Below the pieces are notes generated by a model. That model saw only the letters and a list, made by a program, of their open reading frames with translations. It had not been told where the DNA came from and did no database searches. Below are positions 27,654 to 35,057 of a stretch of DNA of 39,175 nt, piece by piece. A program made the translations under genes and the position numbers. This stretch comes from a virus (taxonomy: Duplodnaviria > Heunggongvirae > Uroviricota > Caudoviricetes): IMG/VR virus record IMGVR_UViG_2627853910_000005. One strand, written 5' to 3'. How positions within the stretch are numbered: the stretch's first letter is position 1; each line of letters starts with the position of its first letter.

Positions 27654-28043
27654 TCAGGCGGCTGCACCCGCCGTTTTCTCGTACTTACTGATAGTGATCT
27701 CGACCTTCCCTTCCGGGATAACCGGTCCCCACTCCACCAGCATTCTTTTCACCTGACTGTCGTCTTCCCACACACCCGCGTGGGTCAGGGCGTCAAACAG
27801 CGCCTTGTTATAGTTGTCCAGATCGCGGATCCGGTTATCCGGAGGAAACAACACAATCTCCACTGAAGCAGGTGCCGACGTTGGTTTTGGCAGACGACGT
27901 AACTGCTCAACTATTGCTGCACACGCCGCGCTCTGGAATTTGCGCCCCGCCGCGCTTATCAGGCTCTTACCAGCAAACGCCCCTTTGTTGGGGTGTCGCC
28001 AGTACGTGTTCACGCTGGGCGGAAAAGGCAGGATCAGCTTCAT
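27654..28043 (-). CDS. rusA: Holliday junction resolvase RusA
   Basis: 129 aa; MKLILPFPPSVNTYW...RIRDLDNYNKALFDALTHAGVWEDDSQV is a RusA signature. Confidence 0.85.
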   Translation of the reverse strand: MKLILPFPPSVNTYWRHPNKGAFAGKSLISAAGRKFQSAACAAIVEQLRRLPKPTSAPASVEIVLFPPDNRIRDLDNYNKALFDALTHAGVWEDDSQVKRMLVEWGPVIPEGKVEITISKYEKTAGAAA

Positions 28044-28693
28044 GCCACCATCTCCCTGACCAGTTTTTCTGCCTGCTGGCGAACCTGCGCCAGAAAGGCC
28101 TCACCACATGCCTCAAGTTCATCGCGCCCGATGTAGCTGATTGCCGGTCCCTTCCAGGTCTTGTCAAAAACAGCAATAGCACCAGCGAAGAAAGCGCCTG
28201 TCGGCACCTGCTTCTCATCTTTCGGGATAAACCAGGCAGGCAGTTCAAAACCAATACGCCCGCGAATAAAAGCAATATGGTCCGCATCTTCCGGCCACCA
28301 CACTTCGCTGGTGGCAGCTTTGATCAGGAAAACATAGCGCCCGCCCTTATCACGCATGGCACTGGCATGTTTCATGATGTAACGCATGCCGGTGATGTAT
28401 TGCCCCTCATGCTGACTGGCGCGACTGTATGGGGGATTGCCAAAGGCAGCACCTTTAAGCTCCGCAAGGCGTTCTGACCAGTCATGCGCCAGCGCGTTGT
28501 CTTCCGCCGTGTAATACGCGGCACATTTGGCGTTATCACCGTCAGTGAACAGATCCAGAACAAACGGGCCAAACAAGGTGTTAATTCCCCAGAAAATGCT
28601 GTCCGGCGTGCGCCACTGATCGCCCACCTCCTTCAGTTCATGGGATGGTTTGTTCCGCAGCTCCACCAGCGCCTGACAATATTTATTACTCAT
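28040..28693 (-). CDS. Phage N6-adenine DNA methyltransferase (Dam-like)
   Basis: 217 aa with an FGNPPYS catalytic motif (NPPY). Stop overlaps the rusA start. Confidence 0.8.
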   Translation of the reverse strand: MSNKYCQALVELRNKPSHELKEVGDQWRTPDSIFWGINTLFGPFVLDLFTDGDNAKCAAYYTAEDNALAHDWSERLAELKGAAFGNPPYSRASQHEGQYITGMRYIMKHASAMRDKGGRYVFLIKAATSEVWWPEDADHIAFIRGRIGFELPAWFIPKDEKQVPTGAFFAGAIAVFDKTWKGPAISYIGRDELEACGEAFLAQVRQQAEKLVREMVA

Positions 28694-28787
28694 TAAGCCC
28701 CCACGTAAAAAGCATCCGCAATGTCTCCGGAAGTACACCCCGGATGGGCTTCAATGAATTTCTGAACTTCATTCAAAAGACTCATGA

Positions 28788-29780
28788 TCACCCCCTGAAT
28801 CCTGCCGGGATCTGGCTGTAGTCCACGTTGTCGTAACTGGCTTTGAAGTACGGATCTTCGCGTTTTTCTGTGTACGTGCTGACGGACGGCGATAAGCGCA
28901 GGGAAAGCTCATCCCATTTTTCCCGCAGCTTCGACGGGCTGAGCACGTTACGGCACCAGAACGGATCGCGGCTGACGCGGCTGTACATCTCGCAGATTTG
29001 TTTGTGAGTACGCCCATCCTGTACACACATCAGGCGAATTTCGTTTGCCCAGGCTGTCCAGTTCGGTTCTTTAGGACGTACCACTTCGCCGTCACATTCG
29101 GCGGCCTGCTCGTACAGAGCGATGATTTTTTTCCAGAGCCACTGTGCGCAGGTCAAATCATCCTGCGTTCCCCACTGGCGCTTTTTAGGGCTGAATACAA
29201 CCGCATCAGGATGGCGAGTTAAAAAATCCTGTTCAGCCATCTGCGTGTCCGGTTGCGAAGCGTCCGGACGAGAAGAGGTTTTATTCTCTGTAGTAATCTC
29301 TGTTGTATTCTCTGTAAGATCATTGGGCCATTTTGACCCGATGACAGCGTGTCGTTTTGAACCAATGGATCGTGTCATTTTGCGCTCATCCATCAGGTCA
29401 CTTTGACCCGATGGAGAAGTGCATTTTGACCTGATGGATTCGTTCACTTTGACCTCTTCTAAAAGCTCACTTTCATAGTTGATCGTGTAGAAGTTGGTCA
29501 TGTCACGCTTCGATTTATTGAGTTGCTCGCGACGCAAAACCCCAAGTGATTTCAGGCTTGCAAATGTGCGTTTCAGAGTGGACTCTGACCAGAACGGAAA
29601 CTGCTCCAGCCACTGTTCTGTCGTGTTATAAACCCAGCGAATTCCGCCATGCTCAGTGCCTGAATTCGTTTCATTCAGCCAGTAATGAAGCTGCTGCAAC
29701 ACAATTGCCTCATTCAGACCAATACGGCATGCAAGATCACGATTTATCACAATGGGCTGGGATGTCATTAACAGGCTCAT
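28788..29780 (-). CDS. Replication initiator (lambda O-like N-terminal domain) carrying the origin
   Basis: N-terminal winged-helix region (IVINRDLACRIGLNEAIVLQQLHYWLNE...). A Thr/Glu-rich linker is encoded by the iteron block; C-terminal domain of unknown type. SD AGAGGT upstream. Confidence 0.7.
   Translation of the reverse strand: MSLLMTSQPIVINRDLACRIGLNEAIVLQQLHYWLNETNSGTEHGGIRWVYNTTEQWLEQFPFWSESTLKRTFASLKSLGVLRREQLNKSKRDMTNFYTINYESELLEEVKVNESIRSKCTSPSGQSDLMDERKMTRSIGSKRHAVIGSKWPNDLTENTTEITTENKTSSRPDASQPDTQMAEQDFLTRHPDAVVFSPKKRQWGTQDDLTCAQWLWKKIIALYEQAAECDGEVVRPKEPNWTAWANEIRLMCVQDGRTHKQICEMYSRVSRDPFWCRNVLSPSKLREKWDELSLRLSPSVSTYTEKREDPYFKASYDNVDYSQIPAGFRG
29285..29459. repeat. Candidate origin of replication: iterons plus short periodic repeats inside the initiator gene
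   Basis: Six direct repeats of consensus yCAyTTTGACCyGATGG at about 23-bp spacing (starts near 29329, 29353, 29377, 29399, 29422, 29445), adjacent to three 12-bp TCTCTG-containing repeats (29285, 29297, 29309). Confidence 0.6.
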
Positions 29781-29789
29781 GACCGACCT

Positions 29790-33693: not shown

Positions 33694-33820
33694 TTTCATT
33701 GCTGCAAATGCCCCTGCGGGGGCATTTATGGAAACGTAATTGACTCAACAATCGCCTGATAGCGAGGGCTTCCTTTTACCCGAATTCAGCGCGGTGCAGC
33801 GCATATACGTGGAGAACAAA

Positions 33821-34357
33821 ATGTCATTTATTAAAACTTTTTCCGGGAAGCATTTTTATTATGACAAGATAAATAAAAACGACATCGTGATTAACGATAT
33901 CGCGGTTTCCCTTTCAAATATCTGCCGCTTTGCCGGTCATCTTTCTCACTTCTACAGCGTCGCCCAACATGCGGTGCTTTGCAGCCAGCTGGTGCCGCAG
34001 GAATTTGCTTTTGAAGCGTTAATGCATGATGCAACAGAAGCGTATTGCCAGGACATCCCCGCACCACTGAAACGCCTTCTTCCTGACTATAAACGGATGG
34101 AAGAAAAAATAGACGCAGTAATCCGTGAGAAATACGAGTTGCCCCCGGTTATGAGTACGCCTGTGAAATATGCCGATCTAATCATGCTGGCAACCGAACG
34201 CCGTGATCTCGGGCTTGATGATGGCTCTTTCTGGCCTGTACTGGAAGGCATCCCGGCAACAGAGATGTTCAAAGTTATTCCACTGTCACCAGGCCATGCC
34301 TACGGGATGTTTATGGAACGTTTTAACGAGTTATCGGAGTTACGCAAATGCGCATAA
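33821..34357 (+). CDS. HD-domain phosphohydrolase (YfdR-like 5'-deoxynucleotidase)
   Basis: 178 aa from the ATG with SD GGAGAA. His and HD motifs (SVAQHAV, LMHDATEAY). Matches my recollection of YfdR. Confidence 0.75.
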   Translation: MSFIKTFSGKHFYYDKINKNDIVINDIAVSLSNICRFAGHLSHFYSVAQHAVLCSQLVPQEFAFEALMHDATEAYCQDIPAPLKRLLPDYKRMEEKIDAVIREKYELPPVMSTPVKYADLIMLATERRDLGLDDGSFWPVLEGIPATEMFKVIPLSPGHAYGMFMERFNELSELRKCA

Positions 34358-34698
34358 ATGTTTTCGAAATGGAAGGTTTTCTTCGCGGGAAATGTGTACC
34401 GCGAGATCTGAAAGTGAATGAAACAAATGCTGAGTATCTGGTGCGTAAATTCGATGAAGTACGTGCTGAGGCTCGCAACGAGGGTATTAACTATACCGCA
34501 AGCCGTCTTGCTTCTGCTTTCAATCACGGATTTATCAATAAGCCTTTGACTGAAGTTTTCGACGTTACACGCATGATTCTGTCAGCGAAAGAAGAGTTAG
34601 CTAATGAATCGCATCCGATTGATGGCCTGTCTGGTGAATATGCGGAGAAATCCCTTGAAGAATGGGCGGAACGGCTTCGCAAAGGGGGCAACCAGTGA
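34348..34698 (+). CDS. Hypothetical protein (116 aa)
   Basis: ATG overlaps the end of the HD-domain gene. No domain recognised. Confidence 0.5.
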   Translation: MRINVFEMEGFLRGKCVPRDLKVNETNAEYLVRKFDEVRAEARNEGINYTASRLASAFNHGFINKPLTEVFDVTRMILSAKEELANESHPIDGLSGEYAEKSLEEWAERLRKGGNQ

Positions 34699-35057
34699 CT
34701 GGACATGCAGCAATCCTCGACATGTGCTGTGGCAGTCGCATGTTCTGGTTCGATACAAATGACGAACGGGCGATATTCAGCGATATCAGAAAGGAAGAGC
34801 ATACATTGTGCGATGGGCAACGCCTGATTATCAGTCCTGACCTGATAGCTGATTCTCGTGCATTACCATTTGCAGACGCATCTTTTTCGGTGGTTGTATT
34901 CGACCCTCCGCATCTTGAGCGTGTTGGTGATAACGCCTGGATGGGGAAAACAATAACAGCTCTCATTACTCTAGAAAATCTCGCATTAGCTTTAACCGGA
35001 AAGTCAGACCTGCCAGTGGAGCTACGGCTGCGAAATGTTGAGATCAAGGTGAAATAG
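34695..35057 (+). CDS. Small putative SAM-dependent DNA methyltransferase-like protein
   Basis: GTG start overlaps the upstream stop (GTGA). Motif I-like LDMCCGS and motif IV-like VVFDPPH. Unusually short (about 120 aa), so it may be truncated or inactive. Confidence 0.45.
   Translation: MTGHAAILDMCCGSRMFWFDTNDERAIFSDIRKEEHTLCDGQRLIISPDLIADSRALPFADASFSVVVFDPPHLERVGDNAWMGKTITALITLENLALALTGKSDLPVELRLRNVEIKVK

Follow-up and report, generated by a model that had tools for sequence, protein, structure and literature searches.

What do two methyltransferase-like open reading frames (ORFs) contribute to a prophage in which neither has a restriction endonuclease gene for a neighbour? The question is raised by IMG/VR record IMGVR_UViG_2627853910_000005, a stretch of tailed-phage DNA that we analysed over its full length of 39,175 nucleotides and refer to here as the window. 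An earlier note, made from the letters alone, had listed 'two orphan methyltransferase genes': a Dam-like gene with an NPPY motif (ORF1, 28040..28693, minus strand) and an unusually short ORF with a DPPH motif (ORF2, 34695..35057, plus strand). Our analysis brings the methyltransferase count for this prophage to one, not two. ORF1 is an intact phage dam gene, while ORF2 is an in-frame fusion of the first half of a different methyltransferase gene with the end of an unrelated gene, and is predicted to be inactive. The window itself is a defective E. coli prophage, lambdoid and of the SfV/mEp460 type; to the best explanation as a whole, with all its parts taken jointly, we assign a probability of about 0.86.

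ORF1 is an intact phage dam gene

ORF1 encodes 217 amino acids, from an ATG at 28691-28693 to a stop at 28040-28042, and its catalytic motif IV, NPPY (residues 86-89), is encoded at 28427..28438 on the same minus strand. It matches the Pfam family PF05869 (Dam) with an E-value of 3.9e-46 (157.3 bits against a cutoff of 28.1, profile positions 2-167 of 169) and the NCBIfam model TIGR01712, phage_N6A_met, with an E-value of 4.5e-76 (254 bits against a cutoff of 97.05, positions 1-165 of 165). The PADLOC model for Type II methyltransferases, MTase_II PDLC03263, is matched end to end (1-217 of 217). We aligned ORF1 with 14 members of the family at 32-70% identity, 15 sequences in total. D47, N66, A67, P88, S90, G117 and P152 are invariant in the family and present in ORF1, as are the nearly invariant D25, W27, T29, F49, P87, Y89, G145 and R146; these residues sit in the stretches GDQWRTP, DLFTDG, EDNAL, NPPYS and GR. 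Searched exhaustively, a set of 1.84 billion representative proteins yields 1579 clusters related to ORF1. The exact protein occurs on 454 contigs, and its common RefSeq entry is named 'phage N-6-adenine-methyltransferase'. By every sequence criterion tested, ORF1 belongs to the PF05869/TIGR01712 phage Dam family. Both ORFs are where the earlier note had placed them and carry the motifs that it named, with methyltransferase profile matches far beyond chance. Its description of ORF1 as a full-length Dam-like N6-adenine methyltransferase agrees with the full-profile matches to PF05869 and TIGR01712, and its term 'nin-like region' is apt for a gene that lies between an O-like gene and rusA/Q.

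The closest described relative is the Dam of Shigella phage SfV (orf41; GenBank U82619, AAL89443), to which ORF1 is 98.6% identical at the amino acid level over all 217 residues (tblastn). The SfV gene belongs to the same family and occupies the same slot, between the replication gene and rusA. Copies in cdtI, mEp460, SfII and several Stx2c phages are ~98% identical to ORF1. Because ORF1 is 98.6% identical to a gene annotated as dam in SfV, it most likely methylates GATC. It is a small, solitary enzyme in which no target-recognition domain can be recognised, and searches of the PDB with its sequence or with the family profiles returned nothing significant, so that no solved structure was matched. 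C-terminal fragments of Dam also circulate: phrog_26052 (93 amino acids) matches residues 125-217 of ORF1, which is itself full length. In E. coli K-12, yfdM of the cryptic prophage CPS-53 is probably such a C-terminal fragment. Staphylococcal phages hold distant homologues of ORF1.

ORF1 resembles the E. coli host Dam (M.EcoKDam), T4 Dam (alpha-class), Hia5 and M.EcoGII in being a solitary N6-adenine methyltransferase with a (D/N)PPY motif; the sequence families and the motif orders of these enzymes differ from those of ORF1. Two of them were considered as relatives and rejected: Hia5 groups with the alpha-class EcoDam/T4Dam enzymes (PMC3299994) and M.EcoGII is described as beta-class (PMC7544214), and both lie outside PF05869. 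We likewise rejected the Dams of the M.EcoVT2Dam/933W type from Stx2a phages. These phages are numerous in the collection searched, yet the list of organism groups with tblastn hits to ORF1 does not include them.

One point of nomenclature concerns this family directly. In the RefSeq phage records NC_019716, NC_021857, NC_004313 and others, the 217-amino-acid Dam homologue is labelled 'phosphoadenosine phosphosulfate reductase'. The label was apparently inherited from phrog_33262, a 495-position family of fusions between phosphoadenosine phosphosulfate reductase and Dam, and on a stand-alone Dam it is a misnomer.

ORF2 is an in-frame deletion fusion

ORF2 encodes 120 amino acids on the plus strand and starts with a GTG that overlaps the stop codon of the upstream gene. 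The first sign of a fusion came from the PHROG matches, which split between two families. With residues numbered in the 131-amino-acid ORF that runs from an upstream ATG at 34662, residues 12-97 match positions 48-133 of 229 in phrog_954 ('DNA methyltransferase', E-value 5.8e-42) and residues 94-131 match phrog_1222/34021, covering positions 26-63 of 63 in phrog_1222. A Pfam search of ORF2 gave no match, and the same search with a full-length homologue of ORF2 gave only sub-threshold hits to Methyltransf_11/25.

E. coli E2855 has the unbroken arrangement, as do many Shiga-toxigenic strains: yfdR is followed by genes for a 116-amino-acid protein, a 157-amino-acid class I S-adenosylmethionine (SAM)-dependent methyltransferase, a 138-amino-acid protein, a 63-amino-acid protein and a DUF551 protein. 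Window positions 33702-34948 correspond to 1903-3149 of the E2855 locus (L005) with 95.5% nucleotide identity, and 34940-35079 correspond to 4059-4199 of the same locus with 90.8% nucleotide identity (88% to HK633 gp30). The two alignments overlap by 9 nucleotides, and 918 bp, exactly 306 codons, are missing from the window relative to E2855. Overlapping BLAST segments and a three-way alignment place the junction at the microhomology GATGGGGAA (34940..34948, plus strand), where both parental genes encode Met-Gly-Lys. A 918-bp deletion between two near-identical stretches of 9 nucleotides accounts for the fusion: codon ~85 of the methyltransferase gene now runs on in frame into codon ~27 of the gene for the 63-amino-acid protein, and the 138-amino-acid gene in between is gone.

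ORF2 is composed accordingly. Its 5' part (34695..34948, plus strand) encodes residues 1-85 of the class I SAM-dependent methyltransferase, comprising motifs I-IV and β1-β4 by the E2855 alignment and a structure model, with the DPPH codons of motif IV of this small methyltransferase family (residues 70-73) at 34902..34913 on the plus strand. The 3' part (34949..35057, plus strand) encodes the last ~35 residues of an unrelated 63-amino-acid protein of no assigned function that resembles HK620 p06. This protein is not present in full length, since only positions 26-63 of its profile are represented, as the tail of ORF2. PGAP annotates two partial pseudogenes on the same stretch in strains 13TMH22 and 2-1.

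The upstream gene is of mixed make-up as well. It is a yfdS-like gene of 116 amino acids (34348-34698, plus strand) that is mosaic, with residues 1-42 matching phrog_583 and residues 36-116 matching the end of phrog_614. Phage Stx2c_EH0430 has a 180-amino-acid form with 64 more codons, although the 116-amino-acid form is common.

What ORF2 has kept and what it has lost

Residues 1-85 of ORF2 align without gaps and with ~90% identity to the N-terminal half of WP_000145671.1, the full-length methyltransferase of E2855 (phrog_954; PADLOC oMTase PDLC03730), which occupies the same slot after the yfdS-like gene. The motifs ILDMCCGSRMFWFD, DIR, PD..AD and VVFDPPH are common to both, and the features of the N-terminal SAM-binding half are all present in ORF2: motif I (D.CCGS), the acidic β2 residue and DPPH. 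Of the C-terminal half, with KYG, FRVL.P.G.LIFKWNE, THW and β5-β7, nothing is found. Compared with the full-length enzyme ORF2 lacks residues ~86-157, carries a foreign tail of 35 amino acids and has the substitutions R42Q and F54S. Profile coverage ends correspondingly early, at position 133 of 229 in phrog_954, 94 of 169 in PDLC03288 and 86 of 153 in PDLC03730.

Structural consequences can be read from a full-length E. coli member that was modelled with AlphaFold2 on an alignment of 146 homologues (predicted local distance difference test, pLDDT, 89.8; predicted template modelling score, pTM, 0.86). The model has strands at 7-9, 26-30 and 64-69, the last leading into DPPH; a helix (95-109) comes next, and then the strands 110-121, 138-144 and 150-156. 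(An initial model from a 33-sequence alignment had a pLDDT of 60 and gave meaningless Foldseek matches to acetyltransferases, with E > 0.3; it was discarded.) ORF2 lacks the long helix 95-109 and strands β5-β7, three of the seven core strands, and should therefore be unable to act as a methyltransferase. Among the 63 alignment columns that are at least 90% conserved, 30 are absent. D70, P71, P72 and H73 are invariant in the 146 homologues, and so are the columns at which ORF2 has R42Q and F54S; the two substitutions point to relaxed constraint. From the sequence and the model together we regard ORF2 as a pseudogene, predicted to be inactive as a methyltransferase.

The earlier note had surmised a possible truncated remnant in the short ORF, and the alignment to complete homologues bears this out; 'early-left operon' is a correct description of its position between the yfdP/Q/R/S-like genes and xis/int. 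The tally of two orphan methyltransferase genes does not survive: only ORF1 is plausibly functional, ORF2 being a deletion-fusion pseudogene without β5-β7.

Spread of the fusion

The exact 120-amino-acid fusion protein occurs on 209 contigs, and 16 fusion variants, 92-99% identical and with the same junction, are found in E. coli and E. albertii. A single recent deletion confined to one lineage was considered, since the exact 1.2-kb region is present in no more than 7 of 5426 complete genomes, and was rejected, given hundreds of contigs and 16 variants. In all eight contexts compared (8/8) the fusion lies in the same int-proximal module together with a dCTP deaminase gene, while the immunity and replication modules vary. 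The spread of the fusion is accounted for by one old deletion with subsequent hitch-hiking and recombination.

The dCTP deaminase gene of this module (36189-37784, plus strand) lies between xis and int in a stretch with a GC content of 0.33 and encodes an anti-phage protein of 531 amino acids, which matches NCBIfam NF041025 with 468 bits and the PADLOC model dCTPase with 548 bits. Located inside a prophage, and in a low-GC stretch, it is therefore a defence gene carried by the prophage.

The parental methyltransferase family

The family from which the first half of ORF2 derives counts more than 8000 proteins, typically of 154-168 amino acids (~157), in which DPPH is invariant and a target-recognition domain is absent; the full-length parental gene lies at 2896-3369 of the E2855 locus. 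Members from phages of E. coli, Listeria, Corynebacterium, Acinetobacter, Porphyromonas, Vibrio and Mannheimia share 50-66% identity, a range that holds across phages of five phyla. PDB sequence searches with the methyltransferase or with family profiles gave nothing significant. Fold searches with the parental model returned only generic class I methyltransferases, and the structural neighbours with a (D/N)PP[FYH] motif are the RNA N2-methylguanosine (m2G) methyltransferases Trm11, TrmN, RsmC and Trm14, and M.TaqI. The substrate labels attached to the family are predictions: profile libraries call it 'DNA methyltransferase', and a note on ORF50 of Listeria phage A118 mentions cytosine methylation. 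We found no experimental determination of a substrate for this family.

The neighbours of dam and the missing restriction partner

No restriction endonuclease is found among the ORFs from Q (25062) to int (39175), all of which are assigned by Pfam, PHROG, PADLOC or PGAP; the neighbours of both genes have functions usual for lambdoid phages. The earlier note had reported no adjacent endonuclease for either ORF, and these assignments agree: the adjacent cognate endonuclease of a Type II restriction-modification system accompanies neither. Nuclease-like neighbours of dam are limited to RusA and a DUF968 protein with a weak match to HNHc_6 (27.8 bits), and no defence-nuclease model of PADLOC was matched in any neighbour.

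Downstream of dam lies rusA (27654..28043, minus strand; PF05866, phrog_34), encoding a Holliday junction resolvase, the start of which overlaps the dam stop by 4 nucleotides. In SfV and mEp460 a gene for a LexA-DNA-binding-like protein of 108 amino acids (SfV orf42) stands between the two. In the window it is precisely absent, with 323 bp missing relative to mEp460, and dam and rusA are joined at a shared start/stop overlap, GCATGA (28040-28045). The join is a typical module exchange at a gene boundary.

On the other side, alignment to mEp460 and SfV shows that dam is preceded by the stub of a PerC-family gene (SfV orf40), 30 amino acids long (28693..28785, minus strand), which PGAP marks as a partial pseudogene. 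The stub was produced by a 396-bp in-frame deletion, and its TAA overlaps the ATG of dam. Within the deleted 396 bp lie the -35 and -10 elements assigned to dam in the GenBank record of SfV.

Comparison with related elements shows how loosely dam is tied to its surroundings. In SfV, in mEp460 and in a metagenomic locus (L020) it stands between the 162-amino-acid PerC-family gene and the 108-amino-acid LexA-DNA-binding-like gene, whereas in the window its flanks are the 30-amino-acid PerC stub and, with the LexA-like gene absent, rusA. The prophage of E. coli S88, at the same attachment site, has PerC, the LexA-like gene, RusA, KilA-N and DUF968 and lacks dam, and SfIV has been reported without the methylase (PMC3851460). 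Since S88 keeps the neighbours without dam, the neighbours do not depend on it, and dam behaves as a free cassette.

Expression and probable role of dam

ORF1 and ORF2 sit in the two divergent early operons under the control of a CI-like repressor, and a consensus scan found no sigma-70 promoter next to either of them. Given this repressor-controlled position and the lack of an adjacent promoter, dam would be transcribed only after induction, presumably with delayed-early timing, within the rightward operon (cro, cII-like, O-like, dam, rusA, Q). The enzyme would then act on replicating phage DNA and be silent in the repressed lysogen. Prophage adenine methyltransferases are typically silent in the lysogen, and several are non-specific (PMC3299994, PMC5778455).

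The virion DNA of lambda and P22 is under-methylated, as replication outruns the host Dam (PMC3299994; bioRxiv 10.1101/2020.10.05.325894). The probable gain from a phage dam is full GATC methylation of fast-replicating phage DNA that the host Dam leaves under-methylated, and complete methylation would shield this DNA from restriction enzymes that are blocked by GATC methylation. An anti-restriction device is the usual rationale for orphan phage methyltransferases in a passage of PMC8637289 that cites Murphy et al. 2013. We infer such a role for ORF1, as we do its GATC specificity and the timing of its expression.

Weighing the alternatives

Several points weigh against the explanation preferred here. 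GATC specificity is drawn from the 98.6% identity to SfV dam and from the description of the SfV genome by Allison et al. 2002 (J Bacteriol 184:1974), which reportedly confirmed the SfV Dam methylase experimentally. The consensus promoter scan is crude, and weak internal promoters may escape it. E. coli already has a Dam, which makes the benefit of a phage copy uncertain, and this prophage cannot make capsids, which renders an anti-restriction gain moot for this particular copy. Finally, the open frame of the fusion is kept in 16 variants from E. coli and E. albertii, which could hint at retention.

Among the other roles that ORF1 might have, expression in the lysogen as an epigenetic regulator of host genes has a precedent in PamA, an NPPY methyltransferase of a S. 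aureus prophage that methylates GATC and alters host virulence gene expression (PMC12435837). The distant homologues in staphylococcal phages and the promoter that the SfV record annotates for dam itself fit this idea. We nevertheless consider it improbable: the SfV-annotated promoter is deleted in the window, no consensus promoter lies upstream, the gene is part of a repressor-controlled early operon, and the host Dam already methylates ~99.9% of GATC sites (PMC6602927), so that an extra enzyme adds little. The epigenetic role that the earlier note had held out as a possibility is not favoured for ORF2 either, which likewise sits in a repressor-controlled early operon. A relaxed or non-GATC specificity like that of Hia5 and M.EcoGII is similarly improbable. 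The small size of ORF1, its lack of a recognisable target-recognition domain and the non-specificity of several prophage adenine methyltransferases that are silent in the lysogen speak for it, yet both model enzymes, the one from the alpha-class EcoDam/T4Dam group and the other beta-class, lie outside PF05869, and the near-identical SfV gene is annotated as dam. We give almost no credence to ORF1 as the modifying partner in a restriction or defence system that has escaped recognition, with the DUF968 protein or RusA as its nuclease. RusA is indeed an endonuclease, and the DUF968 protein, encoded ~1.2 kb from dam, has its weak HNHc_6 match. However, RusA is by its PF05866 assignment a structure-specific Holliday junction resolvase, PADLOC recognises no defence nuclease among the neighbours, the flanks of dam differ in relatives, and S88 has DUF968, KilA-N and RusA without dam, where an unprotected restriction nuclease would be lethal.

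The 120-amino-acid fusion could conceivably be a functional small protein under selection, whether as a SAM-binding half-domain, as a dominant-negative partner of methyltransferases from co-resident prophages or as an anti-defence factor. Its exact sequence on 209 contigs, the frame and junction kept in all 16 variants, the retention of motifs I-IV and a GTGA overlap that couples its translation to the upstream gene speak for this. Against this stand the loss of three of the seven core β-strands, the pseudogene call by PGAP and the signs of relaxed constraint, namely R42Q and F54S at invariant columns and, in another variant, D70A within DPPH. The N-terminal variation mirrors the alleles of the full-length gene, as fits recombination after a single deletion, and the constant association with the same int-proximal module explains the spread by hitch-hiking. 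A functional fusion is on this evidence very improbable, and it is more doubtful still that the fusion is a retained SAM-binding or methyltransferase-interfering factor that spread with the dCTP deaminase module in E. coli and E. albertii. An inactive remnant carried along by its module remains the preferred reading of ORF2.

A decaying prophage between prfC and yjjG

The element that carries both ORFs is a lambdoid prophage located between E. coli prfC and yjjG, where the same or near-identical DNA is present in several complete genomes. Its early region is organised as in SfV, mEp460 and CPS-53; the last of these (KpLE1) is a prophage of E. coli K-12 from the same lineage, with early-left genes of the yfdP/Q/R/S type. 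In and around the immunity region are the genes for the CI-like repressor (31027-31719, plus strand) and, on the minus strand, a Cro-like gene (30669-30929), a CII-like/YmfL gene (30125-30676) and the O-like replication gene (28788-29780). Reading on along the minus strand, the O-like gene is followed by dam, rusA, a KilA-N regulator gene, the DUF968/HNH-like protein gene (25828-26823) and Q (25062-25856, minus strand). In the plus-strand direction the order is yfdP-, yfdQ-, yfdR- and yfdS-like genes, ORF2, a 131-amino-acid gene of no assigned role, xis, the dCTP deaminase gene and the integrase gene int (37937-39175, minus strand).

Compared with the prophage that E. coli S88 and APEC O1 carry at this site, the window lacks 5,519 bp at 15574/15575. 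The missing segment holds the portal gene, a ClpP-major capsid fusion, head-tail genes and part of the major tail gene; with portal and capsid genes gone, the prophage is defective. None of the complete E. coli genomes in the collection, searched with the whole window, carries it intact. S88 and APEC O1 have the left 27 kb in common with the window and hold in addition the 5.5 kb missing from it. Both ends of the window, without 5047-27372, occur in seven complete E. coli genomes, among them 13TMH22, 2-1 and CUVM3. This further deletion of 22.3 kb joins the tail-fibre gene to the KilA-N gene, and the copy of the prophage in strain 2-1 also holds IS3-family insertions. In the decay of the element seen in 13TMH22, 2-1, CUVM3 and others, the window represents an earlier stage.

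Across the window GATC is somewhat under-represented, with 126 occurrences against 180 expected from trinucleotide frequencies; the shortfall lies mostly in the late region (1-25000), with 69 observed and 111 expected.

Significance

Nothing in these findings is new in kind: the Dam was known, the remnant had been flagged by PGAP, and orphan phage methyltransferases are a textbook topic. Their value lies mainly in correct annotation, the Dam being near-identical to a phage gene described more than 20 years ago, and a new methylation motif originating from this prophage is not to be expected in methylome data. As an example of prophage decay the element is a clean textbook case, with four separate deletions in one 39-kb element and decay proceeding through in-frame deletions at short homologies. 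The copy of the second methyltransferase in the window would be dead either way, and the only lead of wider interest is its parental family, which is both widespread and highly conserved.

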